This document shows positions 5,913 to 38,722 of a stretch of 64,000 nt of DNA, piece after piece (position 1 is the stretch's first letter; each line of letters opens with the position of its first letter). The stretch is from contig JAFTEJ010000004.1 in NCBI GenBank assembly GCA_017453725.1, positions 711 to 64,710 of the forward strand. Direction: 5' to 3'. This DNA comes from Clostridia bacterium (lineage in GTDB: Bacteria; Bacillota; Clostridia; Oscillospirales; RGIG8002). Under the pieces are notes generated by a model, which was not told the DNA's origin, did not search any database, and worked only from the letters and a program-made list of their open reading frames with translations. Position numbers and translations under genes: made by a program.

Positions 5913-5941
5913 ATTATGACAAATTTGAAACAAAAAGTCAA
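5913..5941 (-). promoter_or_regulatory. sigma-A-type promoter for tRNA-Pro
   Basis: On the minus strand: TTGACT (5941-5936), a 17-nt spacer, then CATAAT (5918-5913), about 30 nt upstream of the tRNA 5' end. Confidence 0.45.
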
Positions 5942-6054
5942 GTGGTTTTTCTATTTTTTCGAAAAAGCGTAAAGAGTTTTCTCTCCGGCTCCCGCTGTTT
6001 TTCAAAAAAGCGCGGATGTTTCGGGAGTTTTCGCACACTCGGCGCGATTATTCC

Positions 6055-7475: not shown

Positions 7476-7484
7476 CAAAAACGC

Positions 7485-7517
7485 AAGCGCCCGAAGGAGC
7501 AAAGCCTTCGGGCGCTT
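7485..7517. terminator. strong terminator closing the long minus-strand block (also follows the + strand CDF operon)
   Basis: A 13-bp perfect stem AAGCGCCCGAAGG/CCTTCGGGCGCTT with a 7-nt loop. On the minus strand it is followed by GCGTTTTTG. Confidence 0.7.
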
Positions 7518-7536
7518 GATTATGCCGTTATTGTTA

Positions 7537-9906
7537 TTACGCTAATCCGCATTCGGCGCGGAGGGCGATAAGCGCGTCGGCAACGTCAACCTTGCCGTCG
7601 CCGTTGAGGTCGCCGTTCTCAACCGTACCGAGCCCGGCGGCGGCGCGGAGTATCGAAAGCGCGGAGGGCGCTTCCGGTCTCGCGGATTTGACGGGAGCGT
7701 TCGAAAGAAGTTCAACTCCGTCGATGCGTACGACCGCGCCTATAGAGGCGTTGATGAATTCAAGCTTCATGCCCGTCACATTGGCGTCCGGAAGCGCAAA
7801 ACAGAAATTGCCGTCAGAGATTATCGCTCTTTCAACAGTTTCCTCAACTTCACCTTCGGCTGTCGTGAAGGTCAGCTTCACAGCAAATTCACCGGCTGTG
7901 AAATCTGGATAAAGCGTGCTGAAACGGAAGCGTATCGCGCCGTAAGAGCCGGCTGTTTCGGGAAGTTTTGCAAATATTACAGAAGCGTCAGCGGAGCCGC
8001 AGAAAACGTCAAGCGCGCCGTCGTTCAAAGCAATCGCAACGGAAGAAACGCCAAAGGAATCGGCATTCTCGGCAATAATGCCAAACGGTTCAGCTGCCAG
8101 CGGAATCGCGGCAAGCGCATTAATCTTCGCAAGCAGGTCGAGCTTCGCGGCGTATCTGTCAGCCCGCGTAACAGCGGCCTTGTAAGTTTCGAAAGAAGCC
8201 GAGAAATCCGCAAAGCTGGAAGATGTATATTCATATGGATCCTTGCCGTACGCAAGACCCAGGACTTCATAGTAATTCAATCCCGCATCAACTTTGTACG
8301 CATGAATCGAATCGATTTTGAGCGTCGATTTCACGGAGCAGCCGTCCGTCGAAAATCTGAAGGTGTCAAGACCCACTGCGTTTTCAGAGGTTATAGCGGG
8401 CTCGAAGCTCGAGAACGGAAGGAGTATTTCGTTATACTCATTCTTCATATCCTCAGTTACGGTAACGGAGGCGGAGAAGCTGTTCCCCTTCCCGACGCCG
8501 ATGGTAAATTCGTTATCAGCGAATCCGGAGGCGCTGATCACAAATCCGTCATAAGCGGAAAGATCCGTGCTGCCGCCGCTCTTGAGCTTGAACGGAGTCG
8601 CGAGCGGGGTCGTGACCGTGAGGTTGAAGCCCACTTTGGCGTTCGCCATTACTACCAGCGCTCCCTTTGAGACCATCGCGGTCACCGCGGTGTTGTTTGA
8701 AGAAGTGGTGGTAAGAGTTATGCCGTTGACGCTGCTGTTCTTCCTGATATTTGTAAACGACCAGGAGGAGAAGGAGTTAAGATCGGTCACGATATAATCG
8801 TCCGCGAAGGACATCGGCGCGGTATCGAGCGCGAAATCGCGAAGTCCCATTGACGCAGCTATGAACTTCGGAACTTCAATGCTCGCGTGATCCCCGGTGA
8901 ACGCGGAAGCGTTCTTCCCGTAGGTGTAGAGCGCGGAATTCAGCGAGCTGGTTCCGTATCTCTTGAAGCACGAGTTCGTCGTGTTGCCCGAATTGGGACG
9001 GTCGGCAAGCTTAAGCTCGCCCGCCTCGACGTCGCCGACGACCACGAGAAGCGTATCCGGATGCGCGTCAACATACGCCATGGCCGTGCCGACGGCTTCG
9101 TCAAACTTGACGAGTTCATTGACCATACCGGTCATATTTCTCTCAAAGCAATACTTATCGATAAGTCCGCCCTCGGCAACAATGAAGAAGCCGTTATCGT
9201 TATCGAGCAGCTCCGTCGCTTTGGAAAGCATAGCGGAAAGCGTAGGCACCTGATAGCCGGTATCGAAGGAATAATTGCTGAACGCGCCGAAAATCTTTCC
9301 GCCGGGCGTAAGACCGGAAAGCCTGCCGGGCGAAGTGACGTAGTCATATCCGGCGGCGAGCATATCGGCTCTGTAATTATCGAAATACTTTGAACCGCCG
9401 CCGAGGAAAAGATCGATACCGCTGGCGATTTCCTGACGCGCTACGCCGTAAAGATCGGACTTGAGCGGATTATGCACGGCGAAAGCGGCGGGCGTGGCGT
9501 CGTTGAGGTACTTATCGGTGATTATACCGACCTTTTTGCCCGCGTTCCGCATAGCCTCGGTAATAAGCTGAACCTCGTTGCCGTCTTTATCGATGCCGAG
9601 GTTATAGTTCAGCGTCTTTTTGCCGGTGGAAAGCGCAGTCGCGGCAGCCGCCGGATCCGCTATGGCGTTATCCGAGTTTGTCGTGATCAAAGAACCGGAA
9701 TACTCCAGATTCAGCAGGTTGAGCTGCTTTCCGGACTTGATCTTCGCGGCGGTAACGTGCGCCGGACTGATTCCGCTGCCGATGAGCAGAATGACGTTCT
9801 TCGCAGCGAGATCCGCCTGCGGAGCTTCCGCGTATACGCCTATACCCTCAAAGAGCGAAAGCACAAGCGCGAACGCGATGATGATTGAGGCGATTCTTTT
9901 AAGCAT
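7537..9906 (-). CDS. secreted alkaline-phosphatase-fold protein (probably catalytically inactive) with an unassigned ~400-aa C-terminal region and a single dockerin-like repeat
   Basis: AGGAGG RBS. Signal peptide MLKRIASIIIAFALVLSLFEGIGVYAEA. PhoA-like motifs are present but altered: NVILLIGSGIS, ADPAAAATALSTGKKT, NDATPAAFAVH, FFIVAEGGLIDK (see finding). The C-terminus reads DLNGDGKVDVADALIALRAECGLA. Confidence 0.75.
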   Translation of the reverse strand: MLKRIASIIIAFALVLSLFEGIGVYAEAPQADLAAKNVILLIGSGISPAHVTAAKIKSGKQLNLLNLEYSGSLITTNSDNAIADPAAAATALSTGKKTLNYNLGIDKDGNEVQLITEAMRNAGKKVGIITDKYLNDATPAAFAVHNPLKSDLYGVARQEIASGIDLFLGGGSKYFDNYRADMLAAGYDYVTSPGRLSGLTPGGKIFGAFSNYSFDTGYQVPTLSAMLSKATELLDNDNGFFIVAEGGLIDKYCFERNMTGMVNELVKFDEAVGTAMAYVDAHPDTLLVVVGDVEAGELKLADRPNSGNTTNSCFKRYGTSSLNSALYTYGKNASAFTGDHASIEVPKFIAASMGLRDFALDTAPMSFADDYIVTDLNSFSSWSFTNIRKNSSVNGITLTTTSSNNTAVTAMVSKGALVVMANAKVGFNLTVTTPLATPFKLKSGGSTDLSAYDGFVISASGFADNEFTIGVGKGNSFSASVTVTEDMKNEYNEILLPFSSFEPAITSENAVGLDTFRFSTDGCSVKSTLKIDSIHAYKVDAGLNYYEVLGLAYGKDPYEYTSSSFADFSASFETYKAAVTRADRYAAKLDLLAKINALAAIPLAAEPFGIIAENADSFGVSSVAIALNDGALDVFCGSADASVIFAKLPETAGSYGAIRFRFSTLYPDFTAGEFAVKLTFTTAEGEVEETVERAIISDGNFCFALPDANVTGMKLEFINASIGAVVRIDGVELLSNAPVKSARPEAPSALSILRAAAGLGTVENGDLNGDGKVDVADALIALRAECGLA

Positions 9907-10759
9907 TTTCTTTTCCTCCTTGGATTATTGCTGCATTGATTGTGTTCTTTAACAACATCACCCTTGTCATCGGGCCTACTCCGCCCGGGACGGGTGTGAT
10001 AAACGAGGCTTTTGCGGCGCAGGAATCAAAATCGCAGTCGCCGCGAAGTTTGCCGTCTTCGCATCTGTTGATGCCGACGTCGATAACGACGGCTCCTTCT
10101 TTTATCATATCTCCGGTCACGAAACCGGCTCTGCCGATCGCGGCGACAAGTATATCCGCGCGGCGCGTTATATCAGCGAGGTTCACAGTGCGGGAATGGC
10201 AGACGGTAACGGTCCCGTTCTCCTGCATCAGCAGCATCGCCATCGGCTTGCCGACGATGTTGCTCCTGCCGATGACCACGCAGTTTTTGCCTTCGACGGC
10301 AACGCCGGAAAGCTTTATCAGCTCCATGCATCCCGCCGGCGTGCACGGCACGAAGGAATAATCGCCCGTCATTATCCTGCCGACGTTATAATACGAAAAC
10401 GCGTCAACGTCCTTTTCCGGAGCGATGAGCTGCGTTATCTCGGTTCCGTCGAGTCCGTCCGGCAACGGAAGCTGAACGAGTATGCCGTGAACCGAAGAAT
10501 CGGCGTTGAGCGATTTTATAATGCCGGTCAGCTCTTCCCTGCCCGTATCCGCCGGAAGCGTTATGCTCTGAGATATGATCCCGACCTCTTCGCAATCGCG
10601 CTTTTTGTTGCGGACGTATACCTGCGACGCGGGATCGTCTCCGACAAGTATAACGGCGAGCTTCGGCGCGACGCCTTCGCCTTTCAGCGCGGCGACCTGT
10701 TCTTTTATATCTTCTTTCAGCTTTGCGGCAAGCACCTTTCCGTCAAGAATAACAGCCAC
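9899..10759 (-). CDS. folD: bifunctional methylenetetrahydrofolate dehydrogenase / methenyl-THF cyclohydrolase
   Basis: 286 aa. MAVILDGKVLA..., VYVRNKKRDCEEVGI, HGILVQLPLP, VVIGRSNIVGKPMAMLL and PVPGGVGPMT are canonical FolD motifs. GTG start; its last 8 nt overlap the downstream gene's start. Confidence 0.9.
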   Translation of the reverse strand: MAVILDGKVLAAKLKEDIKEQVAALKGEGVAPKLAVILVGDDPASQVYVRNKKRDCEEVGIISQSITLPADTGREELTGIIKSLNADSSVHGILVQLPLPDGLDGTEITQLIAPEKDVDAFSYYNVGRIMTGDYSFVPCTPAGCMELIKLSGVAVEGKNCVVIGRSNIVGKPMAMLLMQENGTVTVCHSRTVNLADITRRADILVAAIGRAGFVTGDMIKEGAVVIDVGINRCEDGKLRGDCDFDSCAAKASFITPVPGGVGPMTRVMLLKNTINAAIIQGGKENA

Positions 10760-11679
10760 TATTCCTCGTCCTCCGTCGGTATGTCTATAACAAGCGCGTC
10801 TTCATCGTCCGAAGCCGAAGACGCCTTGTGCTTGCCGCGCTTTTTGATTCGGAAAACTATGATCAGCACAACCGCGGCAATAAACGTTGCGGCGGCTATG
10901 ACCTGAGAAATACGGACGTTTCCGAACAGTATCAGGCTGTCGGTACGCAAGCCTTCGACAAACATACGTTCAAAGCCGTACCAGGCGCAGTACATAAGCG
11001 CGATCTCGCCGTCGAACTTTTTGAGTTTTTTATAGCACAGCCAAAGGACGAGGACTCCGAGCAGACACCAGAGCGATTCATAGAGGAAGGTCGGATGCAC
11101 GGGCTTCGACGAATCAAGGATTATCCCGAAGCGCTCCTTGACGTCCGCCGCTTCGCTGCGGATGTTTTCGGCGATGATGTTGCCGGTCATACCCCACGGC
11201 AAATCCGTATTGACGCCGAAAGCCTCCTGATTGAAGAAGTTGCCCCAGCGTCCGAGCGCCTGTCCGATAAGTATCGCAGGCGCGGCGATGTCCGCAAGCT
11301 TCAGGAACGGCTGCTTTTTTACGCGGCAGTACACGAACGACGCGAGCACGGCGAATATGACTCCGCCGTATATCGCGAGTCCTCCGTTCCAGATATACAG
11401 AATGCTGACGGGGTCCGCGAGATACTGATCCAGTCGGAAAAGCACGTAATACAGCCTTGCTCCGATGAGTCCGAAAACCATGGCGATTATAGCAATGTCG
11501 ATGAACGTATCGCTTTTGAACCCCCGCTTCTTGCCCTGAACGAGCGCATAAACGATTGCCAGCGCGAATCCGAGCATAATGCAGAGCGCGTACCACTTGA
11601 TCTCGATCGAGCCGATCTTGAACGCGGTAGGCGAAACGTTCACCGTTATTCCGAGCTTCGGAAAGCTTATATAGTCCAT
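10759..11679 (-). CDS. lgt: prolipoprotein diacylglyceryl transferase
   Basis: The ORF runs 10759..11706. The ATG at 11679 (MDYISFP) is preceded by GGAGGAG. Motifs IKWYALCIMLGF, GARLYYVLF, GGLAIYGGVI and GRWGNFFNQEAFG are present. The tail is acidic. Confidence 0.9.
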   Translation of the reverse strand: MDYISFPKLGITVNVSPTAFKIGSIEIKWYALCIMLGFALAIVYALVQGKKRGFKSDTFIDIAIIAMVFGLIGARLYYVLFRLDQYLADPVSILYIWNGGLAIYGGVIFAVLASFVYCRVKKQPFLKLADIAAPAILIGQALGRWGNFFNQEAFGVNTDLPWGMTGNIIAENIRSEAADVKERFGIILDSSKPVHPTFLYESLWCLLGVLVLWLCYKKLKKFDGEIALMYCAWYGFERMFVEGLRTDSLILFGNVRISQVIAAATFIAAVVLIIVFRIKKRGKHKASSASDDEDALVIDIPTEDEE

Positions 11680-11724
11680 TATAACTCCTCCGGAGAAAAA
11701 TATCAACTAAAAACTATATGCCGA

Positions 11725-12795
11725 CTAAAATGTGTCTATGATCCGCGCGATATAGCGCATGATAATCAGCACGTCGGAAACGGTTACGACTCCGTCGCCG
11801 TCGACGTCGGCGGCTTTGCGCTGGTTAGTAGTGGGCTTCTTCAAGCCGAGCGAATAGCGAAGCGCGAGGAGCGCGTCCTCGATATCGGTCGCGCCGTCCT
11901 TGTTCGGATCGCCGAGCGTGTACGCCGGAGTCACGACCGGCAGCTTTATATCAGCTATTAGCGGCCAGTGGTCGGACGCTGCCCTGATCGCCTGATCCCT
12001 GACCTGCGCGGTGTAAAGGCAGGTCGCTTCGACGCTGCAGAAGATATGATCGACGCAGCCGGAAATCGGGTTCGGGTCGACGTCGAACAGAACGTTGCTG
12101 TTCGCTATGGTCTGATACGGAACCTCGTCTATGGTGGCGTTCATATCGCCTGTGGAAATAAACGGGCACTTGTTCTTGCTCAGCCACGTCTGCGCTTTTT
12201 TAACGAGCTCTCCCGCCTGAATAGTCCTCTGCGGGGTGTTATCGCCGCCGGAGCCTTCCCAACCGGAATTCAGATGCGTCGAGCTGACAGCAAACTTCCT
12301 TCCGTCGGCTTTATTCTGGAAAAGAGCTATAGCCATGTGGCGCATCTGTATGCTGTTGGAAACGGAGTATTTATAGAGCTCGGTCTTTACAACGTCATAC
12401 TTCGTCTTATCATACAGAAGAAGAGAGCAGTTTTCATCGTCGCCATCGGCCGATATATCGGGAAAGATGAACTCATACTTATCGCCGAGCAGCTCGCGAA
12501 TCGCAATATGCCAAAGCTTGGAGCATTCCTGAAGCCCTATAACGTCCGGCTTATAATAATTCACAAAATCGGCGAAAAGCTGCGGACGGTTGCCAAGCAC
12601 CCACGGACTCCAGCTGAAATCCTCCTGCGCGACGAGCACGTTATACGAAATGATTCGTATATCCGCGCCTTCGACGAGCTGCTCAGGATACGTGCCGACG
12701 TATCCGTCCGCCGCGGCGCTGAATGAAACCGCCGCCGGAAACGCCGTCGCAAGCACGGTCAACGTGAGCAGTAAAGCTGTCAATCTTCTTTTCAT
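11725..12795 (-). CDS. secreted EEP-family (endonuclease/exonuclease/phosphatase) hydrolase with C-terminal dockerin
   Basis: Signal peptide MKRRLTALLLTLTVLATAFPAAVSFSAAA. EEP catalytic motifs are intact: IISYNVL, IGLQEC, VSSTHL, TGDMNAT, ASDHWPL. Dockerin duplicated Ca loops: DPNKDGATDIEDA and DVDGDGVVTVSDV. Confidence 0.75.
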   Translation of the reverse strand: MKRRLTALLLTLTVLATAFPAAVSFSAAADGYVGTYPEQLVEGADIRIISYNVLVAQEDFSWSPWVLGNRPQLFADFVNYYKPDVIGLQECSKLWHIAIRELLGDKYEFIFPDISADGDDENCSLLLYDKTKYDVVKTELYKYSVSNSIQMRHMAIALFQNKADGRKFAVSSTHLNSGWEGSGGDNTPQRTIQAGELVKKAQTWLSKNKCPFISTGDMNATIDEVPYQTIANSNVLFDVDPNPISGCVDHIFCSVEATCLYTAQVRDQAIRAASDHWPLIADIKLPVVTPAYTLGDPNKDGATDIEDALLALRYSLGLKKPTTNQRKAADVDGDGVVTVSDVLIIMRYIARIIDTF

Positions 12796-12833
12796 AATAT
12801 ACCTCCAAAGATAAAGTCAGGAAGGATACGCGG

Positions 12834-15800
12834 CTATTCGGCAAAACCCGCAGCTCTGCGGAGAATCCGCAGCGCGTCGGAAACCGTTATCACGCCGTCG
12901 CCGTCGAGGTCCGCGGACAGGCTCTGGTAGCCTTCCGGCTCCGCGAGCCCTACGGAAATACGCAGCGCGGCAAGCGCGTCCGCTACGGTTATCTCGCCGT
13001 CGTCATCGACGTCTCCCATCGTATAAGGAGGCGGCGTGGTGTCAACAACGGTAAAGCGAACGGTCGTTGAATACTCATCGTATCCGTTTATGACAATAAG
13101 CTCGTATTCACCGGGTTCGGTGACGTCCGTCTCGTAATAGCGCCGCTCGCCGTTAAGATAGGCGATGTGGCCGCAGTTCCATGAAGTGCGGATCTCATCT
13201 GTGTAAAGGTCGTACGTCGCGCCGTCCTCAACGCCGGTGACGACCGGAGCGACGAGCGGTACGAACTCGAACTTAGTCGGATTGCTTTCCGCGAACGTCT
13301 GGGCGTAAGAGCCCTCTACGCCGTAGAGCTTGACAGTTTTCATATTATTGCTGAAAAGGCTTCCGCTTATTGACGTCACGCTTTCGGGGATATAGACGGA
13401 TTCCATAATATACTGTGTGCCGAGATTGGCGCTGACGCTTGTCGTGCCGTTTCTGACAATGAGCTCGCGGGCGCGGTAGTCGCCGCTCAGCACGGTAGAC
13501 GAAAACGTCGATCCGCTTCCGATTATCACGGTGCCGACGCCGGTATTGCGGAACGCGTAAGAATTGACCGACGCGCCGTCCGGGATATCGACCGTACCGA
13601 GCAGCTTGCAGTCGTTGAATGCGTACTGCCCTATCGTTTTAAGCGACGCCGGGAACTCGATCTCACGCAGCGAACTGCAGGCGTTGAATGCGTACTGATC
13701 GATCTTCGTAAGCGTTGACGGCAGTTTGACGGTCATATGATGCACCGTTCTGCCGTATCCGGCGAAAGCGTATTGCCCTATCACAGTCACGGGATACCCT
13801 TCTATCTCATCGGGGATGACGACGTCGCGCAGACCGGAGATGCAGTTTGTGATCGTTACTTCGCCGTTGTTTACGGAATAAAGGAATTCGTCCGTCGCGG
13901 TCTTCGTTCCGTCGACCGTGAACTGCGCGGTCTCAAACGATTGCCCGGAAGCCTCGTCAATGAGCTGAACGCGATAGCTCCCACCCTCCGGAACGCGTAT
14001 CCTGATCAAACGCTTGATATAGAGGTAATCGCTGTCCGTCACAACCGAAAGCAGATTGTCCTTATCAAGCGCGGTTACGGTTTCCGTGCCGTCGCCGAGA
14101 TTTTTGACACGCACCGAGGGATGCTCGTAATAAGGCGAGTTCGTAGTTTCGATGTATATGAATCCGTTGCGGTTGATCGCCGCGGTATCAGCGAACTGAT
14201 GCCCGTCGGCGGAAACCTTTATGGAATCATATATGACCGTCGGTCTCGGAGTAACTGCGGTAAGCGCCCTGTCTATCATATGAGGAGTCGCGTATTTCAT
14301 CCCGGCGATCTTTGAAACGACTGTATACATCGGCGAGGACGGGTCGAGCCGCGCGACGGCCTCCCGAAGCGCGCTCTTGTCATACTCCTTCGGAAGCGCC
14401 CACTTCTGCAGCGAATGCGGATAAGTGCGTTCGGCAAAGAAAACGTACGAGCTGTCCGGCGTAAACTTAATGCGCGAAACGATATAGCCTTCGAGGTTGG
14501 CGTCCGTCTCGCCCGCCTTCAGCGTTTCGAGGTAGGTTCCGTCGGCGGCAAACAGCTTCGCGCCTCCGTCGTAAGCGGCGACAACGATGTATTTCCCGTC
14601 CGGCGAATACGCGGCTTCTCTGATAACGTTCCCGAAGCCGCCGAGCAGCGAAATCAGCTCGCCGCTCTCGACGTCAAAGAGTCTCGCGGCGCCGTAGGTG
14701 GAGGTGCAAAGCAGATTCTTATCGTCCGGCGAGAAGACTATGCGCCTTACAGAACCGGTGTTGACGTTATTGACGGCGGTTATTATCGTTTTGCTTTCGA
14801 CGTCCCAGATATTAACGACGCCGTTGTCGTCGGAGGTAACAAGCAGTCTGCCGTCCGATGAGAAATCCGCGCCGCGGATCGCTCTGACGTGGCCTTCTGT
14901 GAGGTGGGCGTACTCAGTCCAGTCAGAAGTGTTGTATAAGAACGCGCCGTTGCTTGTGGTCGTTACCGCGAGCATCGCTCCGTCGTCCGAAAGCGCGATA
15001 TAGCGCGGGTCGCTGCCGACGTCTATCTCCTGCAGCTTAACGCCCGTCGTTGCGTCGAACACACGGAAGCGCCATTTACCGCTGCCGGAAGAATACTTCT
15101 GCGAGCCGCCGTTGAAGCCGCCGACTATCAGAGCGCTGCTGTCTTTTGTGAAGAGAACGTTCTCCTGGATTACCGCGCCGTTCGAAATCCTTCTCGGCGT
15201 TTTTGAGTAATCCGAGGTGTCGAAAACCGCGATATTGCCCTGCGTCGAAGCGACGGCAAGCTTGCTGCCGTCGGGAGAATAGACGACGCGGAGCGCTCTG
15301 TCGAAACCGGTCGAGAGAATCGCCTTCGTCACATTCGTGACCGGGTCCATAATGTAGACTTTCTTCATATGGTCGGCGGAAGCGATTTCCGTGCCGTCCG
15401 GCTTGACGTCGGTAGCGAAATTGATGTCCCAATAGTCGTTTATGGCGACGGCGTTGAGACCTGTCGAATAATTCACGCTTTCTTCGGTCGTGAAATCGTC
15501 GGTATTATCCGTCAGCTCGCCCGCCTCGAGGTAGCAGCGGACGTAATCGACGTTGATAACGTACTCGTCCTCCGCGCCCCATGCTTCATCGACGATGTTG
15601 TTCGGATATCCGTCGCTTTCCGGCGTCCTCGCGCGCGGCGTGTTATTGAAGACTATATATCTCGCCGTATCGCCGAAGGCGAACTTCTTGCCTTCGCTGT
15701 TATAAAGGAGCGACATATACTGCATTCCGTCGAAGTAGTATCTGATCATATCGCGGTCCATTTCAAGACCGTAGGTGTGGTACTCGTCGCTCAGGTACTT

Positions 15801-17549
15801 TTCGCCGTAGCCGTAGTTGTCCATATAAATGACCTTGGCCCACTCCTTTTTGCCCTCGTCGTCCGTCCAGTGAACGGTGCCGATGACCGTGCCGTTGGCC
15901 TTTATATCGTTCTTGACGACCATTTCCATAATATCGACTTCGCCGGCGCCCATATTCATCATATCGGTAGGCATAAGCCAGAACGCCGGGAACTGCCCCG
16001 TTCCGTAAGCGAGCTTTGCGCGTATCTCGATCTTTCCGTAGCCGAACGCGAACTTGCCGCTCGTGTTCATGTACGTACCGGACATTTCATAAGCGTCGTA
16101 TCTGCCGTATCTGCCTTTGAAGTTGAGGTTGCCGTCGGAGACGTCTATGAGGTCCTCGTCGTCTGGATAAACGGCGCCGTCGGAATAGCCGTCGTAAACG
16201 TTCCACTTTGTGCGGTCTAGGGAGTCGCCGTCAAATTCATCGCTCCAACTCTGAACATACTCTTCCTCAATGACGCGGTAAAGATAAAACTTTTTATAAG
16301 CAGTGCCGGTCGTTGCTTTGACGGTTTCGCCGGCGGTCGTCAGCTTGCCGACGTTTCTGACCTGAATCGTGGCTTTGCCGCCGGAAATGCTGATAGACCA
16401 TTCCTGGCGGGTATTATTGAGATTAGGCTCCTTCGCTTCAACGCTTGCGCCGGACTCGGCAATCGTAAGCACGTTGGTGCTTGACTTATTGATGATTCTG
16501 AAGGTGCCGTTGCCGGAGGGCGACGGCGAAAGCTGCCACATTTGAGTACGGTCGCCTTCAACGTTTTCTTCGAGCGAATACTTCAGCGCGCTGTCTTCGA
16601 TGGCGAGGGTATTATCTCCCCATCTTATCGCGGTCTCCGAAACGGGAGGTCCGAGCGTAATCGCCTTTCCGCCGGAGCTCTCTATGATTTTATAGTAGGC
16701 GTTATCAACGATCTGGCTGCGCGAGGTCACCTGCGTCTCGGAATAAGGCGTAGCCGCGCCGCTCTCAAGGATCTCGTTATACGCGTTCAGATCGGCGACG
16801 CAGAGCGAAGCACCTTTTGCCGCTATACGAATATAATTCATACTGCCGTCTTTTGCAAGCGGTCGGTCGCTTGTCGACGTAAAGTATTCAAACGGGATAT
16901 AGACGTATCCGATCCCGTCGGAGACAATCCCGGACGCGGTGTATGTGTAATTGTCAACGCCGGAGCGAAGTCCGATTGTGACGTCGAGCACGGCGCCGCC
17001 AGCTACCCACATCTTAATGCCGTCTGCCTTCAGCATATCAAGCCCGAACGGAGACTGCCCCGCAACACCGCTTCTGGAAGCGCCGTTGGAAAGAACCGCC
17101 CCGTTTTCGTCACCTGTTACGGAAACGGAGAACTCAACGCCGTCCGGCTTCAGATCCCTGTCGAAAACGGGAGTCGAAGAGGATTCGATCATAGCCTTAA
17201 GATCCTCATCTGTCCAACCGTTGAAGCCGTTAAGCGGAATAATCTCAACGTCGTTCATCGGCTTGAGCATACTCTCGGCGTATTTGAGTTCTTCAAACGC
17301 GGCCTGAAACTCTTCGTCGGTCGCAAGATCGTTATACGCTGCAAAAGTCGCTTCCCATCTCTCGATGCGGTCGGCGAGATACTTTCTCGACTGCTCGCTG
17401 TAGCCCTTGAAGAGAAGGGATTTCGCGTACGCAAGCTCATCTATCGCCTTCGGATTACCATCCGCTCCAACGGTTATCACCGATGACAGCGGCAGCATCG
17501 AAATCGCAAGCGCCAGCGTAAGCAGTATTGCGGTGAGTTTTCTTTTCAT
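12834..17549 (-). CDS. 1571-aa secreted multidomain protein (paralogue A1): FIVAR-like helix, beta-sandwich, ricin-type lectin, GH16, WD40/PD40-like propeller, BspA-type LRR, Ig-like domain, dockerin
   Basis: A signal peptide is present. Q-x-W lectin motifs QMWQL and QEWSI. GH16 catalytic motif GEVDIMEMV with WSDEFDG and FPAFWLMP. Six or more SPDG/SDDG-type propeller blades, including VVNIWDVES. LRR_5-like repeats (IGQYAFAG..., IDQYAFNACSSLREIEFP, IGQYAFNDCKLL). Dockerin loops DVDDDGEITVADA and DLDGDGVITVSDA. Confidence 0.8.
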   Translation of the reverse strand: MKRKLTAILLTLALAISMLPLSSVITVGADGNPKAIDELAYAKSLLFKGYSEQSRKYLADRIERWEATFAAYNDLATDEEFQAAFEELKYAESMLKPMNDVEIIPLNGFNGWTDEDLKAMIESSSTPVFDRDLKPDGVEFSVSVTGDENGAVLSNGASRSGVAGQSPFGLDMLKADGIKMWVAGGAVLDVTIGLRSGVDNYTYTASGIVSDGIGYVYIPFEYFTSTSDRPLAKDGSMNYIRIAAKGASLCVADLNAYNEILESGAATPYSETQVTSRSQIVDNAYYKIIESSGGKAITLGPPVSETAIRWGDNTLAIEDSALKYSLEENVEGDRTQMWQLSPSPSGNGTFRIINKSSTNVLTIAESGASVEAKEPNLNNTRQEWSISISGGKATIQVRNVGKLTTAGETVKATTGTAYKKFYLYRVIEEEYVQSWSDEFDGDSLDRTKWNVYDGYSDGAVYPDDEDLIDVSDGNLNFKGRYGRYDAYEMSGTYMNTSGKFAFGYGKIEIRAKLAYGTGQFPAFWLMPTDMMNMGAGEVDIMEMVVKNDIKANGTVIGTVHWTDDEGKKEWAKVIYMDNYGYGEKYLSDEYHTYGLEMDRDMIRYYFDGMQYMSLLYNSEGKKFAFGDTARYIVFNNTPRARTPESDGYPNNIVDEAWGAEDEYVINVDYVRCYLEAGELTDNTDDFTTEESVNYSTGLNAVAINDYWDINFATDVKPDGTEIASADHMKKVYIMDPVTNVTKAILSTGFDRALRVVYSPDGSKLAVASTQGNIAVFDTSDYSKTPRRISNGAVIQENVLFTKDSSALIVGGFNGGSQKYSSGSGKWRFRVFDATTGVKLQEIDVGSDPRYIALSDDGAMLAVTTTSNGAFLYNTSDWTEYAHLTEGHVRAIRGADFSSDGRLLVTSDDNGVVNIWDVESKTIITAVNNVNTGSVRRIVFSPDDKNLLCTSTYGAARLFDVESGELISLLGGFGNVIREAAYSPDGKYIVVAAYDGGAKLFAADGTYLETLKAGETDANLEGYIVSRIKFTPDSSYVFFAERTYPHSLQKWALPKEYDKSALREAVARLDPSSPMYTVVSKIAGMKYATPHMIDRALTAVTPRPTVIYDSIKVSADGHQFADTAAINRNGFIYIETTNSPYYEHPSVRVKNLGDGTETVTALDKDNLLSVVTDSDYLYIKRLIRIRVPEGGSYRVQLIDEASGQSFETAQFTVDGTKTATDEFLYSVNNGEVTITNCISGLRDVVIPDEIEGYPVTVIGQYAFAGYGRTVHHMTVKLPSTLTKIDQYAFNACSSLREIEFPASLKTIGQYAFNDCKLLGTVDIPDGASVNSYAFRNTGVGTVIIGSGSTFSSTVLSGDYRARELIVRNGTTSVSANLGTQYIMESVYIPESVTSISGSLFSNNMKTVKLYGVEGSYAQTFAESNPTKFEFVPLVAPVVTGVEDGATYDLYTDEIRTSWNCGHIAYLNGERRYYETDVTEPGEYELIVINGYDEYSTTVRFTVVDTTPPPYTMGDVDDDGEITVADALAALRISVGLAEPEGYQSLSADLDGDGVITVSDALRILRRAAGFAE

Positions 17550-17600
17550 AACAGACCCTCCGTTTCTTTGTCTGAAAAAAGACGGGGTGATAATCGCGTG

Positions 17601-22355: not shown

Positions 22356-22440
22356 AATGATCCCTCCGTTATTTCAGCTTTCAGATACGATCGGGGGCTT
22401 CCCCGGTGTCAAATCGGTCCGGCTTGATCCGCCGGGCAAA

Positions 22441-26157: not shown

Positions 26158-26215
26158 TTGATTCCCTCCAAAATTTGAGAATATTTATTAACGCCGACGG
26201 AACGGCAAGAATAAA

Positions 26216-26983: not shown

Positions 26984-27061
26984 TTATCCCGTTTCACCTC
27001 CGCGAACAGATGGACCATAGTCAACTTCATGCGGTTGACAACAGCCGTTCCCTTCGCATTA

Positions 27062-28183: not shown

Positions 28184-28215
28184 AAAGAATACCTCCAGTA
28201 ATTATTAGATTAGTA

Positions 28216-31200: not shown

Positions 31201-32967
31201 CGCCCATTGCGACTTCCCGTCCGCATCGGTCCAGTGGAACGTTGCTATCTGCTGACCGTAAAGATCGTCGCCGTATTGCTGATAGTCTTTGTGCTGAACG
31301 GGCATCTCCATTAGATCGATCTCGGAACGCGCCATATTCATGGAATCGACCGGCATAAGCCAGATTGCGGGCCACATTCCCATACCCTTCGGCATCTTGG
31401 CGCGAATCTCGAATTTGCCATAGCTCATCGCGTATTTGCCGTTGGTCTTGAGATGCGGAGCTTTTGACTGGTAGCCGTTATAGTCGCCGGCATAAGTGCG
31501 CAGGATAAGGTTACCGTCCTCGAGGAAGGCGGTGTCGTCCGAATCGACGTAAAGGGCGCTGTTGCCGCCGCCGAAGAAGAAGCCGCTGTCCGCCTGCCAG
31601 ATCGAATCATCAAGCTTATCGCCGTCGAATTCATCGCTCCAGGTGCTGACGTATTCGCCGTCGTTCACCTTGACGAGAATGAACTTTTTATATGCAGTCG
31701 AGCTTGTTACCTTAAGCGTAGTGCCGGTATAGGTAAGCCTGCCGACGTTTCTCACCTGAATGGTAAACTCTCCCCTCGCGGCGGAAAGCGAAAACTCTTC
31801 GTAAATATCGTTATAATCGACTTGAGCGAACTCAAGCGAAGCCGCCGAAGGCATTCTCATCGCGCAGGCGCTCGCCTTGCTTATTATTCTCAACGTGCCG
31901 TTGCCGGAAGGGTCGGGAGAAAGCTGCCAGAGCTGGGTCAGAAGACCCTCCTGACTCGGCTCGATGCTGAAGCTCATATTCTGATCGACCGTGGCAACGT
32001 TGCCCGTGTGAGGCGGCCAAAGGAGAGCGGTCTCGTCCGGAATCGGGCCGAGAGTGATCGCCTTCGGGGAGTCGGTGCCGTAAGAATCGACAGTATAGAT
32101 TTTGTAATAAGCGTTATCAACGATAGCGCCTCTGGTGTTTATTTTCTGCTCAGAATACGCGACGCGCTTCGACACATCGACAGCTTCGCGGTATGCGCAA
32201 AGCCCGGCGATACGGAGCAATGACGTACCGTCGCATTCGACGCGGATATAGTTCATAAGTCCGTTGGTTTCGATTTCCGCGACGTCCGTATCGGGGATGA
32301 AGAAGTAATACGGAACGGTGATATAGCCTTCGTCGCTTACGGGAATATCGGAAACGGTAAGAGAATAGTTATCCGAAGCCGAGCGCTTGCCGACCGTCAG
32401 CGAAAGCCTTGACGGCGCGTCGACGCTCACCCAAAGCCGGAGCCCGTCCGTATCCGACATATCCATTCCGAAGGGAGATGCACCTGCAATACCTCCGGTC
32501 ACGCCGTTATCATAAACGACAACACCGTCTCCGGTCACTTCAACGGACTGCGCGGCGTCTTCCGGCTTGTGCTCCGGATCAAGGCGCAGTGTACCGACCG
32601 ACGACGTCATAAGCGCCGTATCCTCCGCAGTCAGAGTATCGAACGAAAGCAGCCTGACGTCCTCGCTTCCCTTCATAGGCGCGAGAAGCTCAACACCCGA
32701 GGAAAGCTCCGCGATAACGGCGTAAAGCTCTTCATCCGTGGCGAATTGATCATATATCGCCGCTTCAGCGCGAAGATACCTGTCGTAAAGATACTTTTCC
32801 GTCTGCTCGGTATTGTCTTTGAAGAGCAGCGGACGCGCTGACTCCATAACCTCCGAAAGCTGCAGACGCAGCTGATCGGTCCGTATCTCCGCGGTAATGA
32901 CCGCCGCCGGAAGCAGCGACACAGAGAACGCGAAAAGCACAAGCGTGGTTATGACTCTCTTGAACAT
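28216..32967 (-). CDS. 1583-aa secreted multidomain protein (paralogue B1): lectin + GH16 + propeller + LRR + dockerin
   Basis: Domain order matches the A pair, but the sequence is more divergent. GH16 motif SEIDLMEMPV with WSDEFDGD and WPAIWLMP. Propeller blades include YSPDGKKVA, LSPDGTKLA, FSPDGALLA, FSPDGKYIV and YSPDGRYIV. LRR_5-like repeats (IADYAFANYG, IGNYSFSECASLEVLELP, IGTSAFERCLSL). Dockerin loops DADGDGVITVSDA and DIDGDGEITVADA. Confidence 0.8.
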   Translation of the reverse strand: MFKRVITTLVLFAFSVSLLPAAVITAEIRTDQLRLQLSEVMESARPLLFKDNTEQTEKYLYDRYLRAEAAIYDQFATDEELYAVIAELSSGVELLAPMKGSEDVRLLSFDTLTAEDTALMTSSVGTLRLDPEHKPEDAAQSVEVTGDGVVVYDNGVTGGIAGASPFGMDMSDTDGLRLWVSVDAPSRLSLTVGKRSASDNYSLTVSDIPVSDEGYITVPYYFFIPDTDVAEIETNGLMNYIRVECDGTSLLRIAGLCAYREAVDVSKRVAYSEQKINTRGAIVDNAYYKIYTVDSYGTDSPKAITLGPIPDETALLWPPHTGNVATVDQNMSFSIEPSQEGLLTQLWQLSPDPSGNGTLRIISKASACAMRMPSAASLEFAQVDYNDIYEEFSLSAARGEFTIQVRNVGRLTYTGTTLKVTSSTAYKKFILVKVNDGEYVSTWSDEFDGDKLDDSIWQADSGFFFGGGNSALYVDSDDTAFLEDGNLILRTYAGDYNGYQSKAPHLKTNGKYAMSYGKFEIRAKMPKGMGMWPAIWLMPVDSMNMARSEIDLMEMPVQHKDYQQYGDDLYGQQIATFHWTDADGKSQWAKPLYIYSENKISLDQDYHDYAVEIDNDQVRMYFDGALIVTLNLVNDGIKFAYGDVPRYIILSSGGIQGDGSCVIYPQYEYYDREMVVDYVRVSVRREQFTDETPDFTAASSVQRASTVEYMGKNYNSFMYNFPMAISPDGTQAVMADQAGFLCVYDPRTNELLDTVSTEKYNAFLSVAYSPDGKKVAAATMTGSIIIYDTSDFSKAPVKIHNGATMQYSLCFTADSQYIVTGGFNGGAQTLKNPINNSVTEPHYVRVFNATSGAKSYEIFVESDPLSIDLSPDGTKLAVTTTSAGVFIFNTGDWSEYARFTSEHTKAINRCLFSPDGALLATADELGEVVFWSVAGKNAVSRLDTVNESSIRTLAFSPDGKYIVTNSNDTAARVYSVESGRCVSLLGGFSGIINDASYSPDGRYIVVASLDHTLKLFAADGTYISTLLQKEDLRSEGHISSRICFTPDSRYVLAAEISLPNCINRWELPESVDKSALKAAIEEYVDQDEKLENAKKVYSLKYATSTMVSAALAELTGESAEPSFRAVSISADGDTYADSAEVFRDGWIYIKAEVSILADNVFVEILNTSEESSVRIPVSQLKMGVETLDAPYESTLMRTYIEKAGSCRIRLVNADTGEVSAAVAVTVDENATTRDFLYTVNADETVTINSCKTGAEYLYIPDYIDGYPVTKIADYAFANYGRTVRHMKLRLPSTLKRIGNYSFSECASLEVLELPDGLEYIGTSAFERCLSLIYVDIPDSVKTISTSAFRYVRGTRYIKIGGGMTTVPQTTFPSTIGNRCFIFAEGVEKINSNVSDSAYLLERVYIPRSATTVNASCLRNPYYNVKVYGYPGTAAETYAATSSKLEFVPLAAPIISGVEEGETYDLYDGAVAATWNDGHVAYLNGEYYDAGKPITKPGEYTLKVVNGYDEFTTEVNFTVVDTTPLEGDADGDGVITVSDALLALRAAARLYTPTEKVTAAIDIDGDGEITVADALAILRRAVGL

Positions 32968-33018
32968 AGTATCCTCCGATCCGAACGCATAGCGTTCACA
33001 AATTTGCGGTTAATCCTT

Positions 33019-36000
33019 TTATAGTCCTACGGCCATCCTGAGTACGTCGAGAGCGTCCGCGACGGTAATCTCGCCGTCGGCGTCAAGGTCGATCGCGGCG
33101 GTTACTTTCGCGGTCGGCGCGTAAAGCTTCGCGGCAGCCCGCAAGGTCAGAAGCGCGTCGGAAACCGTGACAACGCCGTCGCCGTCCGCATCGCCTTTAA
33201 CCGGCGTTGTATCGACAACGGTGAAGCTCACCTCTGTTGTGAACTCTTCGTATCCGTTAATAACTTTGAGCGTATATTCCCCGGGCTCCGTTACGGCTCC
33301 GCCCGCGTAATAAGTCTTGCCGTTCAGATACGCTATATGTCCGTCGTCCCAGGAGGCCGCGACGGGTCCGTCGAAAAGGTCGTACGTTCCGCCGTCCTTA
33401 ACGCCGCTGATAACGGGAGCCGCAAGCGGCACGAACTCAAAAGAAGCGTTGTTTGCGGCGAATGTTTCGGCGTAAGTGCCGGGGTAACCGTAAAGCTTCA
33501 CGGTACCGAGCATACTGACGGCAAAGCTTCCGTTGATGCTCGTTACGCTGCGCGGAACATAGACCCTGCCCAGCAGTCTTGCCGGATAGGATATATAAGA
33601 CGAAATCGTCTTTACTCCCTCGTCGAATATGAAGCAGCGGTTGCTGACGGTCATATAAAACGTATAGCCGGGAACGTTAGCGAGTCCGCCTCCGACTCTT
33701 ATATAGGACGTGCCGCGGGCGTAATAGAACGCGTCGCTTCCTACCGTCTTCACGCTTGAAGGAATATCTATGTGCGATAGAGACAGACATCTTCCGAAGG
33801 CGTAAGCGCCTATCGATTCCAGCCCTTCCGGAAGATTGAGTTCTTCAAGCGACGTGCATTCGTAGAAAGCGTAGTTGCCTATCGACTTCAAAGTACGCGG
33901 AAGACTGAGCTTCATATGCAGCACGGTCTGACCGTAATTCTGGAACGCGTAATCCCCTATCGCAGTTACGGGGTAACCGTCTATGTAATCGGGTATATTC
34001 ACGCTTTCACCGCCGCATTTCGCGCCGGTTATCGTGACCTTGCCGTCCGAAACGGTGTAAAAGAAATCGCGCGTGGTCGAAACATCGCTGACGAAGACGG
34101 ATGCGCTTTCCGAGACATTGCCTTCGGAATCGGTGAGATAAACCGTGTATTCTCCGCCTTCGTCCGGATGCAAGCCCAGCAGGTGCCTGATATAACCGCC
34201 GCCGGCATCCTCGGACGAAAGCTTTATACTGTCGATCGGGATTATGCTCGGATCGTCAAGCCCCTTCTTGACGGCCAAGAATGCGGAAGAAGCGCGCGAA
34301 ACCTCGACGGTGACATAGAGCCGGCCGTTGCGGTAAATCGAAGCCGAATTGCCGAACGCGACTCCGTCGGCGGAAACGGCTATCGCGCCGAAAGGAGCCG
34401 GGAGCGGTTCTCCCGTAAGCGCCGCGACCGCTTCGGCTGCCGCTTTGGCGGAAGCGTACTTCATAGCGTAAACCTTCCGCGCGTTATCGAGCGCGGGCGT
34501 CTTTCCGGCGCAGGCGTCTATCGCCGCCTTAAGCGCGGACTTGTCCGTTTCAGCGGGCAGCTCCCACCTGTTGACGCAGGACGGGAAGGAATAGCTTGAC
34601 GCGTAAATATATCTGCTGTCGGGCGTGAAGCATATTTTAGATGAAATATGCCCTTCCGAATACGTATGCGAACCGAGGAGCAGCGTGCTGACGTAAGTCC
34701 CGTCCGCGTAATAAAGCTTCATCGTGCGGTCGAGAGAAGCGGCGGCGACGAATCTGCCGTCCGGCGAATACGCGACCTCGTGTATCTGCCCGGCAAAACC
34801 GCCGAGCAGCGATACACAGCGCCCGCTTTCAACGCTGTAAACTCGCGCCGCGCTGTCGGTGCTTGTGGTAACGATACGTTTTCCGTCCGGCGACCAGGCG
34901 AGCTTTCTTACGGAGCTTTCGTTGACCGTGTCGAGGCGGCGCACCGCGTTCTTGTCCGCTACGCTCCACAGAACGACCTCCCCGGCTTCATCCGACGTCG
35001 CTAGCAGCGAGCCGTCCGGAGAAAAACGGCAGAACTGAACGGTGTTCACGTGCTCGGTGGTAAAGTGAGCGTATTCGCTCCAGTCTGCGGTGTTGAAGAT
35101 GAACACGCCGGCGCTTGTCGTGGTGACCGCAAGCTTTGTTCCGTCGGGGGAAAGATCCGCCGATAGCGGATCGCTCTCGATAAAGAGCTCGTTTTCCAAC
35201 GCTCCGGTATCGGCGTTGAAGACTCTGATGTAATGCGCCTTTGTGACGGAGCTGTTGTTGGGGTTTTTCAGCGTCTGCGCTCCGCCGTTGAAGCCGCCGG
35301 CTATAAGATGTCCGCCGTCCTTTGTGAACGTCAGGCAGTAATGCATGGTCGCGCCGTTGTTTATCCTGACAGGCGCCTTGGAAAAGTCGGAAGTGTCATA
35401 TATGAGAACGGAACCGTTCATAGTGCCGGCGGCAAACTTACCGCCGTCCGGCGAATAGGTCGCCGTGATGAAGGATCTGTAGCTTGTCGTCGTCGGAACC
35501 AGCTGCAGAGTTTCACCCGTGCGCGGGTCGTATACGCAGAGTATGCCTGACTGATCGGCCATTACTCCCTGCGTTCCGTCGGGCGAAACATCCATCGGGA
35601 AGCTCGACATAAAGAAGTTGGAATCCCTGCCGAGATACTCGACTCCCCTTGAGCCGACCACCGAATACTCGCTGGTGAAATCGGGCGTATCGTCCGTCCC
35701 CTGCTCGGAACGGATATAAGCGCGGACGTAATCGACGCGCATCTCTCTGTCGCCGTAATACTCGTTGGGATCGAGAACGGCGTTGGTTATGCCCTCGATA
35801 CCGCCGGAGGAAAGAATAATATATCTGGCGACGTCTCCGTAAGCGAACTTCTTGCCGTCGTCGTCGAGATTGAGCGACATAATAAGCGCACCGTCAAAGT
35901 ATAAGCGCACCTGATCGGTATCCAGCTCGACCGCGTAAGTATGATAGTCGTTCGATAGAGCCTCATAGTTTTCCGAATATATGTCAACACGCTTGTCCAT

Positions 36001-37710: not shown

Positions 37711-37752
37711 ATCAACCACCTTACAAGAAGCTATCCGGATGTCAGAGCAAGA

Positions 37753-38499
37753 CTACTCACACCTGCCGTAGATATCGCAGGCTTTATGTATACAGTCGCG
37801 GAGTACAGCGAAATCTTCGTCGGAAATGTTATCGGGCTTGAATGTCGAATCGTGGATCGAACCGCCGGTGACCACCTCAAAGAAGGCGCCGCCGGCAAGA
37901 TACTGCCCCTTGGAGTTAGCGTGGAACCCGTCCTCGCATAGGGTATCGCCGATGGAGGACGCTCTCGCAAGCTGGAACGCCTCGCCGGACGGAACGATAT
38001 GCTTTGCGCCTATCGCGTCTGCGGCGAGATAATACGCTTCCTTGATGCACTTGAACATATAATCCTGATCGCAGTTGAAATCAGGAAAATGCTCGTGGGT
38101 CGAGTCGTGCTGATACGCCCATGTCTGATGAATGATTATTTCGGCGTTCGGAACACGCTTGTGGACATAGTTGTATACGTAATCCAGAAACGGCTGGTAC
38201 GTATTGAAATTTCCGGCAAGACCGCTGACCTGCTGTATGGAAATATGCGTCCAGTCGTCGCTTTCGAGCGCGGTGTTTATATCGCAGGAGCCGTTGCTCT
38301 TTCTGCGGGTGTGCTCGTATCCGTAAACCTCGGCGCCCGCCTCGAAAAAGTTCTTGTGCATTTCCAGACTGCACCCGCCGTAGCAAAGATCGCCCACCTT
38401 AAGCTTCATCGGACTGCTGTCCGCTATGCTCTGCAGGTATGTGTAAGCGTTCCAGGAAAAGCTGTTTCCGATCATCAAAAGTTTTCTTTCTCTCATCAT
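37753..38499 (-). CDS. SGNH-like hydrolase, DUF4886-like
   Basis: 248 aa. N-terminal LLMIGNSFSWNAYTYL (a GDSL/SGNH block-I-like Ser) and C-terminal EDGFHANSKGQYLAGGAFFE (D-x-x-H block), as I recall for DUF4886. There is no signal peptide. Confidence 0.55.
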   Translation of the reverse strand: MMRERKLLMIGNSFSWNAYTYLQSIADSSPMKLKVGDLCYGGCSLEMHKNFFEAGAEVYGYEHTRRKSNGSCDINTALESDDWTHISIQQVSGLAGNFNTYQPFLDYVYNYVHKRVPNAEIIIHQTWAYQHDSTHEHFPDFNCDQDYMFKCIKEAYYLAADAIGAKHIVPSGEAFQLARASSIGDTLCEDGFHANSKGQYLAGGAFFEVVTGGSIHDSTFKPDNISDEDFAVLRDCIHKACDIYGRCE

Positions 38500-38550
38500 T
38501 TGCCCCCATTAAGACATCTTTTCGCATAGTTATACTCCTATACATTGTTT

Positions 38551-38579
38551 ATTATATCACGACGCCCGTCGATAATCAA
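38551..38579 (-). promoter_or_regulatory. candidate sigma-A promoter heading the long minus-strand block
   Basis: On the minus strand: TTGATT (38579-38574), a 17-nt spacer, TATAAT (38556-38551), about 50 nt upstream of the 38499 start. Confidence 0.45.
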
Positions 38580-38667: not shown

Positions 38668-38700
38668 CGAAAAGAAAACGCCCCGGTCCGAAACGACCGG
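38668..38700 (-). terminator. terminator after the giant glucan-synthase-like gene
   Basis: CCGGTC/GACCGG stem (38683-38700). On the minus strand it is followed by GGGGCGTTTTCTTTTCG. Confidence 0.5.
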
Positions 38701-38722
38701 AGCGCCCGCTTTTACAATTGGC

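Follow-up and report, generated by a model that had tools for sequence, protein, structure and literature searches.

Clostridial cellulosome gene clusters, such as cip-cel of C. cellulolyticum, start with a scaffoldin gene, which is followed by genes for cellulases and hemicellulases, and comprise about 12 genes on more than 25 kb. Ruminococcus flavefaciens FD-1 encodes 222 dockerin proteins, including 28 with leucine-rich repeats (LRRs), five with glycoside hydrolase family 16 (GH16) modules, 16 of the peptidase type and 155 with unknown modules; head-to-tail arrays of dockerin paralogs are considered probable operons in this strain, and its cohesins are encoded in a separate sca cluster (PMC2930009). 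Truncated R. flavefaciens dockerins with a single Ca loop (group 2) are functional and bind the cohesin of ScaE (PMC12270676). In Bacteroides thetaiotaomicron, the phosphatase BT3783 and a GH92 alpha-mannosidase act together on phosphorylated yeast high-mannose glycans (PMC4978465). Here, a 64-kb stretch of DNA from an uncultured ruminant-gut Clostridia bacterium was analysed (the window; 64,000 nucleotides of contig JAFTEJ010000004.1, assembly GCA_017453725.1). It harbors a block of twelve minus-strand genes (7537-38499; all coordinates refer to the whole window), seven of which encode proteins with a complete or partial C-terminal dockerin.

The block is best explained, with a probability of about 0.6, as a conserved, lineage-specific cluster of secreted, dockerin-tagged multi-module surface proteins, which would be displayed via a cohesin and trim glycans. 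Gene structure, domains, intact or dead catalytic motifs, synteny and the predicted dockerin fold are established here. The cargo would comprise four paralogous adhesin-glucanases (the giants G1 to G4), two secreted EEP phosphoesterases, in one of which six CBM_4_9 modules precede the EEP domain (EEP-Doc and CBM-EEP-Doc), and a dead alkaline phosphatase (AP)-like protein with half a dockerin. The clustering of the dockerin genes is mainly due to tandem paralogy (four giants and three EEP genes) and not to co-location of unrelated genes.

For the identification of dockerins, the C-terminal 100 residues of the proteins were scanned alone with Pfam Dockerin_1 (PF00404, gathering score 22.9 bits). 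The original prediction had assigned full duplicated-loop dockerins to six proteins of the block, a single repeat to the AP-like protein and an eighth dockerin to a GH92 protein encoded 13 kb from the block, and all of these assignments were recovered. The six full dockerins scored 45.5 (EEP-Doc), 29.9, 34.8, 32.0 (CBM-EEP-Doc), 33.7 and 28.9 bits and the GH92 tail 25.6 bits, all above the threshold; the AP-like tail, with one complete Ca loop, scored 17.0 bits and thus below it. Both Ca loops are present in each of the six block dockerins, with the repeat starts 34-35 residues apart. The GH92 dockerin has a Cys at position 6 of the first loop, and the dockerin of the AP-like protein consists of a loop-less first helix and the second loop only. 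In an AlphaFold2 model of G3 (predicted local distance difference test, pLDDT, about 85-92 over the dockerin tail), the predicted dockerin structure matches the C. thermocellum type I dockerin 2ccl_B with a TM-score of 0.87 and a root-mean-square deviation of 1.2 Å over 60 residues. The recognition positions 10/11 are occupied by V-(S/A/T/G) and 17/18 by L-R in most repeats of the eight dockerins, the exceptions being I-E in repeat 1 of EEP-Doc, V-V in repeat 1 of GH92 and, at 17/18 of the second repeats, M-R in EEP-Doc and M-K in GH92. The two repeats of a dockerin are identical to each other at 10-14 of 22 positions in the giants, CBM-EEP-Doc and GH92, and at 7 of 22 in EEP-Doc. This pattern fits a single specificity class of all eight dockerins, possibly with a dual binding mode; given one dockerin type, a common cohesin partner is probable. 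Each of the seven block proteins with a dockerin has a visible signal peptide.

The giants form two pairs, G1/G2 (59% identical) and G3/G4 (62%), with about 42% identity between the pairs. They share the same layout: a signal peptide and approximately 310 amino acids (aa) without Pfam match are followed by a partial ricin-type beta-trefoil, GH16 and a WD40 propeller, and the C-terminal half consists of a helical linker, an immunoglobulin (Ig)-like domain, BspA-type LRR_5, a second Ig-like domain and the dockerin. The trefoil was found above threshold in G1 (32 bits) and G4 (26 bits) and below it in G2 and G3. The ExDxxE catalytic motif of GH16 is intact in all four giants (EVDIME in G1 and G2, EIDLME in G3 and G4), in each case preceded by a WPA(I/F)W-type strand. 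The top PDB matches of the GH16 domain are all endo-beta-1,3-glucanases or laminarinases (3azx, E = 1e-24; 4dfs, 4crq, 3iln, 2hyk and 2vy0), and no lichenase-type enzyme is among the closest solved GH16 relatives; judged by these similarities, the giants' GH16 is of the catalytically intact laminarinase type. The model of G3 residues 1030-1583 (mean pLDDT 84.4) retrieved TpLRR and BspA-like LRR structures, Ig-like domains and dockerin 2ccl_B in a Foldseek search. No relation of the giants' N-terminal region to the CBM_4_9 protein was detected with HHalign (probability 0.8%). Full-length relatives (at least 97% of the query aligned, 40-100% identity) were found in only 22 clusters among 5.8 billion; the named ones are proteins from metagenome-assembled genomes (MAGs) of Clostridia bacteria, and beyond these clusters only single modules match. 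By this search, the lectin-GH16-WD40-LRR-dockerin architecture is confined to one narrow clade. In the literature, no paper was found that joins dockerin, WD40, LRR and glycoside hydrolase.

The EEP proteins were compared with solved structures using a family profile built from alignment A1. This profile is closer to Bacteroides EEP structures (3g6s, 3e-18; 3mpr, 7e-15; 4c1r, 1e-14) than to nocturnin (6e-12), TDP2 (6e-7), sphingomyelinase (7e-4) or exonuclease III; both 4c1r and 3mpr represent BT3783, a mannosyl-6-phosphatase. Residues E90, H174, D217, N219, D267, S274, D275 and H276 are invariant or nearly so in the alignment, and the SDH catalytic motif is present in all three EEPs of the window. 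The EEP of 255 aa carries neither a signal peptide nor a dockerin and has in-frame stops upstream. Its ortholog in the related locus L001 (15896-16738, 280 aa) possesses an N-terminal transmembrane segment, which is absent here; since the upstream frame is closed by stops in the window, the location of this protein (cytoplasmic or membrane) differs between the two species. In distant relatives, the EEP is fused to CBM_4_9 and to modules of CE2/GDSL esterases, and DUF4886 genes lie next to these fusions (L045, 435-11266; L046, 2129-7850). Because these distant relatives share it, the association of EEP, CBM_4_9 and DUF4886 is older than the clade and linked to carbohydrates, and the arrangement beside DUF4886 and GDSL-like genes in L045 and L046 suggests a conserved gene set for deacetylation plus dephosphorylation. 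The DUF4886 protein of the block contains a GNSF motif of the SGNH-like type, lacks a signal peptide and is probably cytoplasmic. An ortholog of the Zn-ribbon protein is conserved in L001; a role as RsgI-like anti-sigma sensor was considered for this protein and rejected, as it is tail-anchored and has no extracellular module.

The AP-like protein was compared with Shewanella AP (3a52) and 35 catalytic-type relatives. The motifs GDGMG, TDSAA, EGxxIDxxxH and ADHET, which are kept in 35 of 35 catalytic-type relatives with two exceptions at the His position, read GSGIS, ADPAAA, EGGLIDKYCF and VGDVEA in the window protein. The AP fold is retained. Since the nucleophilic Ser and three metal ligands are replaced, the AP-like protein is, by its motifs, a catalytically dead pseudoenzyme, as had been proposed for it before. 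It extends about 440 aa beyond the AP domain, with beta-sandwich and helical modules without Pfam match. An exhaustive search of 1.84 billion representatives yielded only three other clusters of full-length relatives (45-52% identity). All four clusters have degenerate sites, with loss of the same metal ligands, and share the same C-terminal half-dockerin (7540-7665 in the window), composed of the loop-less first helix "ALxILRAAAGL" and one complete Ca loop plus helix. Because it is common to all four family clusters, the half-dockerin is a conserved form rather than a product of decay in this genome. The members of the family are the window protein (7537-9906) and P0201-P0203, with loci L047 and L048. 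In the nearest catalytically intact AP relatives (P0204, P0208), which are large and secreted, the phosphatase is fused to starch-binding modules of family CBM26; these fusions hint at a broader class of extracellular phosphatases associated with glycans.

In L047, the pseudo-AP gene follows folD (78% identical to folD of the window) with the same 8-nt overlap, and the order lgt-folD-pseudoAP is kept in L048 and in GCA_016648615.1, where the gene call for lgt is also 306 aa. As the trio is kept in distant relatives, lgt and folD of the block belong to an older conserved unit next to which the paralog array lies, so that the block is probably a composite and not one purpose-built unit. A function of lgt as lipoprotein link for the block proteins was rejected: since a lipobox Cys is missing from all of their signal peptides, lgt is not obviously tied functionally to these proteins.

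The twelve minus-strand open reading frames (ORFs) of the block succeed each other from 38499 to 7537 with intergenic distances, from the AP-like end upward, of -8, -1, 45, 38, 51, 85, 58, 78, 32, 51 and 42 nt, and a GGAGG-type Shine-Dalgarno sequence precedes the start codon by 6-10 nt in all of them; for lgt, the start was set at the ATG corresponding to Met10 of the longest ORF. The ORF map agrees with the original prediction of twelve consecutive genes with gaps of 85 nt or less and overlaps of 1 nt (lgt/folD) and 8 nt (folD/AP-like), and the scans likewise bear out the good promoter placed at the top and the strong terminator placed at the bottom (Table 1). When aligned with the orthologous intergenic region of L001, which has otherwise diverged, the promoter stands out by its conserved -35 and extended -10 boxes, and this argues that it is real. 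A further terminator separates the block from the co-directional GH94 gene upstream. No convincing minus-strand terminator was found between 38499 and 7537 in the terminator scans.

G3 is 100% identical to P0001, annotated as "MAG: leucine-rich repeat protein [Clostridia bacterium]", and its gene is located on ENA scaffold XIEF21-1_SAMN15829944_METAG-scaffold_1817 (69,439 bp). Beyond the metK-side end of the window, this contig codes for a RecD2-type helicase, a ComF-like protein, MreB and an amidohydrolase. When EEP-Doc, MetK and the AAA ATPase were looked up as exact proteins, no record was returned, probably because the start calls differ. L001, from the water-buffalo rumen MAG Clostridia bacterium RGIG8183, has about 70-74% nucleotide identity to the window and encodes GH94, DUF4886, G4, G3, the Zn-ribbon protein, EEP, CBM-EEP-Doc and a further giant in the same order; the orthologs keep their dockerins. 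The order in GCA_016648615.1 is CBM-EEP, two giants, EEP-Doc, lgt, folD and AP-like, followed by a convergent cation-efflux gene. Synteny is thus kept across three genomes. The pseudo-AP ortholog of GCA_016648615.1 is longer (937 aa) and has a CBM_4_9 match. The GC content (0.53-0.58) is uniform over the block and its flanks; together with the kept synteny and the lack of an integrase or transposase in the Pfam scans, this led to the rejection of a horizontally acquired island. Region 2001-6000, which covers the genes for an AAA ATPase and a Wzy_C/O-antigen-ligase-like protein, is lower in GC (0.45-0.49 compared to about 0.55 elsewhere).

In the proposed mechanism, the dockerin proteins would be secreted and plug into the same cohesin. 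This cohesin would be part of a scaffoldin or of a cell-anchoring protein whose gene lies at another site of the genome, as is the case in Ruminococcus, and the dockerin proteins would thereby be displayed together on the bacterial surface. Transcription of the upper nine genes probably starts at the conserved promoter, and read-through from the array into lgt-folD-pseudoAP may give one long transcript. The likely job of the proteins would be to bind and trim phosphate-decorated glycans containing beta-1,3-glucan. Three parts of this explanation are inferred: the partner cohesin, transcription as a single unit and the substrate. The original prediction stated that no cohesin or scaffoldin ORF is present in the window, and indeed Pfam Cohesin did not match any window ORF of at least 200 aa; nor is a cohesin on record among the Pfam-annotated genes beyond the metK-side end of the 69-kb contig. 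The oddity implied by this absence did not hold up. In the best-studied rumen systems, scaffoldin genes are clustered apart and about 60-220 dockerin genes are dispersed away from them, so the absence of a cohesin from 64 kb says little. Nor are dockerins on non-cellulase cargo unusual, since LRR, GH16 and unknown modules are documented on dockerin proteins of R. flavefaciens FD-1 (PMC2930009), and the contrast drawn between GH16 and carbohydrate-active enzymes fails because GH16, here of the laminarinase type, is itself one of these. By analogy, the lack of a nearby cohesin and the non-cellulase cargo are the expected state for such an organism.

Several observations weigh against this explanation. 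Sequence searches of the window and the metK-side contig end identified no cohesin for this organism, and a profile of the seven full dockerins retrieved only short dockerin fragments at contig ends and no cohesin-bearing protein. Not every ortholog is tagged with a dockerin, since a Big_3 domain but no dockerin is recorded for CBM-EEP of GCA_016648615.1; with the CBM_4_9 match of the pseudo-AP ortholog from the same genome, this means that the C-terminal module content varies among close relatives. Several promoter-like sites lie inside the block, e.g. at 32120..32092 and 17216..17188 on the minus strand. The substrate is deduced from remote homology: EEP-Doc matches BT3783 with E = 0.006 as a single sequence and reaches 1e-14 only with the profile.

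With respect to the missing partner, the dockerins might be orphans in a genome without any cohesin, as in R. albus 8, and would then either tether the proteins via a cell-wall polymer or another protein or act as Ca-dependent stabilising tails. The negative cohesin searches in the window and beyond its metK-side end agree with this, and there are precedents: R. albus strains encode 58-90 dockerin proteins with zero or one cohesin (PMC4081043), and nine of 25 dockerin-bearing genomes in a rumen MAG survey had dockerins but no Pfam cohesin (PMC9763041). However, complete Ca loops and uniform recognition residues in both repeats suggest selection for a specific partner, and incomplete MAGs give false absences. 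Moreover, ruminococcal cohesins are often missed by hidden Markov models (HMMs), and HMM-negative ruminococci turned out to hold divergent cohesins (bioRxiv 10.64898/2026.02.05.704116), so that orphan dockerins are considered unlikely here. The same escape from HMMs would allow for a cohesin hidden in the block itself, as a divergent fold in the giants' N-terminus or in the roughly 380 aa at the centre of the pseudo-AP; in the latter case, the pseudo-AP would act as an adaptor scaffoldin that carries a half-dockerin. The room for it is given by the stretches without Pfam match in these proteins, and one truncated (group 2) R. flavefaciens dockerin is attached to a cohesin-like module (PMC12270676). 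When profiles of the unannotated giant and pseudo-AP regions were searched against all PDB sequences, many cohesins included, neither a cohesin nor a CBM was matched at E <= 10; no cohesin fold was among the top 50 Foldseek matches of the G3 1030-1583 model, which is Ig-like and LRR; and it is in this region that the longer pseudo-AP ortholog has its CBM_4_9 match. The pseudo-AP model had a pLDDT of 62.7, and its fold search was swamped by AP matches. Altogether, a hidden cohesin is very improbable.

A much stronger competitor, placed only slightly below even odds, concerns transcription: instead of one operon, the block may consist of at least two abutting units, the array from DUF4886 to EEP-Doc and the older lgt-folD-pseudoAP. 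The trio and its translational coupling are kept in relatives whose pseudo-AP is only 45-48% identical, and the housekeeping genes lgt and folD need to be expressed whatever the substrate. The internal sigma-70-like sites on the minus strand point in the same direction, as does an excess of sigma-70-like hexamer pairs between 7000 and 26999 (25 compared to 11.0 +/- 3.1 expected from shuffled sequence); these pairs occur on both strands and mostly within coding sequence. On the other hand, the block lacks a convincing internal terminator, the gap between EEP-Doc and lgt is only 45 nt and its sole strong promoter-like match overlaps the lgt start codon, and the adjacency of EEP-Doc and lgt is kept in GCA_016648615.1.

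As to the target of the displayed proteins, a fungal or yeast wall is the most coherent guess, given the laminarinase-type GH16, EEPs that resemble BT3783 and a GH92 close by whose dockerin is of the same type; mixed-linkage cereal beta-glucan is the alternative, and other phosphoglycans are possible. A more far-reaching version, in which the cluster and the nearby GH92-dockerin protein form a dockerin-displayed machine against rumen fungal and yeast walls rather than plant fibre, appears doubtful at present. In that case, the beta-1,3-glucanase adhesins would grip the wall via their WD40, LRR and lectin modules, the alpha-mannosidase and the EEP glycan phosphatases would strip phosphomannan, and the dead AP would serve a new purpose as a module that binds phosphate esters.

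Directly upstream of the block, a protein of 2478 aa with Glycoamylase, GH94 supersandwich and GH94 catalytic domains is encoded (38723-46159, minus strand), which resembles cyclic beta-1,2-glucan synthase-type proteins; the gene is in the same position in L001 and L044. An FMN riboswitch (60871-61012, plus strand, 87 bits) precedes the gene for an ECF-type riboflavin transporter S component (61071-61625, plus strand). According to the gene calls of L049, a SCIFF peptide of 47 aa (59669-59812, minus strand) is followed by its radical-SAM/SPASM maturase (58177-59487, minus strand). The long plus-strand ORFs 59775-60680 and 61028-61648 are spurious and overlap real genes in another frame. A tRNA-Pro (CGG) gene is located at 5807-5883 (minus strand) between the O-antigen-ligase-like and cation-efflux genes.

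Table 1. Features of the dockerin block and of the GH92 gene nearby (window coordinates)
Feature	Coordinates	Strand	Evidence or details
sigma-70-type promoter candidate	38551..38579	-	TTGATT, 17-nt spacer, TG-extended TATAAT; 10/12 positions match (scan)
intrinsic terminator after upstream GH94 gene, upper block boundary	38676..38707	-	13-bp stem, 8 GC pairs, then T-run
DUF4886 protein, 248 aa	37753..38499	-	Pfam DUF4886 E = 2e-68
giant G4, 1563 aa	33019..37710	-	Pfam; gene call confirmed by L044
dockerin of G4	33022-33198	-	
giant G3, 1583 aa	28216..32967	-	Pfam; architecture as G4
dockerin of G3	28219-28395	-	
double zinc-ribbon protein with C-terminal transmembrane tail, 373 aa	27062..28183	-	weak Zn-ribbon matches, Pfam and NCBIfam
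EEP phosphoesterase, 255 aa	26216..26983	-	Pfam Exo_endo_phos E = 5.7e-14
CBM-EEP-Doc, secreted, 1238 aa	22441..26157	-	CBM_4_9 E = 4e-74 in 6 stretches, EEP, Dockerin_1
dockerin of CBM-EEP-Doc	22450-22626	-	
giant G2, 1584 aa	17601..22355	-	Pfam
dockerin of G2	17622-17795	-	
giant G1, 1571 aa	12834..17549	-	Pfam RicinB_lectin_2, GH16, WD40, LRR_5, Dockerin_1
dockerin of G1	12846-13016	-	
EEP-Doc, secreted, 356 aa	11725..12795	-	Pfam EEP and Dockerin_1
dockerin of EEP-Doc	11749-11916	-	
lgt, prolipoprotein diacylglyceryl transferase, 306 aa from ATG	10759..11679	-	Pfam LGT E = 6e-80
folD, methylene-tetrahydrofolate dehydrogenase/cyclohydrolase	9899..10759	-	Pfam THF_DHG_CYH and its C-terminal domain
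AP-like pseudo-alkaline phosphatase, secreted, 789 aa	7537..9906	-	AP domain E = 1e-38
intrinsic terminator at block bottom	7484..7518	-	14-bp stem, 10 GC pairs, then T-run
GH92 alpha-mannosidase-family protein with same dockerin type	51581..55666	-	Pfam GH92 E = 6e-116; 1361 aa in L049
dockerin of GH92	51584-51757	-	

If the display of the cluster proteins via a cohesin is right, the locus is another example of dockerin display in rumen Clostridia well beyond cellulases, and its most distinctive details are a multi-domain architecture restricted to one clade and a small conserved family of pseudo-phosphatases, both of which are added for annotation. Were the doubtful fungal-wall machine real, a cellulosome-like complex would turn over rumen fungal and yeast biomass, i.e. 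a cohesin-dockerin system would attack other microbes. This would bear on fibre digestion, in which anaerobic fungi have a key part as degraders, and on yeast additives in feed, and it would provide a testable enzyme set.

Compared to cip-cel-type clusters, the block is similarly a long co-directional cluster of secreted dockerin enzymes with short gaps, but it is headed by DUF4886, no scaffoldin was found, housekeeping genes lie inside and the cargo is different. The resemblance to Ruminococcus flavefaciens and R. albus is broader. These are likewise rumen Clostridia with C-terminal two-repeat type I dockerins, signal peptides, multi-module cargo including LRR, GH16, CBM and unknown modules, head-to-tail paralog arrays, a truncated single-loop dockerin variant and scaffoldin genes that are not adjacent to the dockerin genes. 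The lineage of the window differs in its short dockerin linker (34 residues between the repeat starts), in that no cohesin is known yet, and in the lectin-GH16-WD40-LRR_5-dockerin cargo, found only in the 22 database clusters; EEP and pseudo-AP cargo is absent from the tabulated modules of strain FD-1 (PMC2930009 does not contain the word 'phosphatase'). With the polysaccharide utilization loci for yeast mannan in B. thetaiotaomicron, the window shares the co-encoding of GH92 and an EEP of apparently the same subfamily, and both systems appear to remove glycan decorations. Unlike these SusC/D-based systems of a Gram-negative bacterium, dockerin display would be used here in a Firmicute; the similarity to BT3783 is remote, GH76, GH125 and GH99 are lacking, and the main glycosidase is the beta-1,3-glucanase-type GH16. 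The LRR_5 modules of the giants match the BspA-like LRR_5 proteins (TpLRR, PcpA and the Bacteroides/Faecalibacterium structures 4fs7 and 4gt6) by sequence and predicted fold, whereas here the LRR is one module of an enzyme-adhesin fusion of approximately 1,570 aa with a dockerin anchor.

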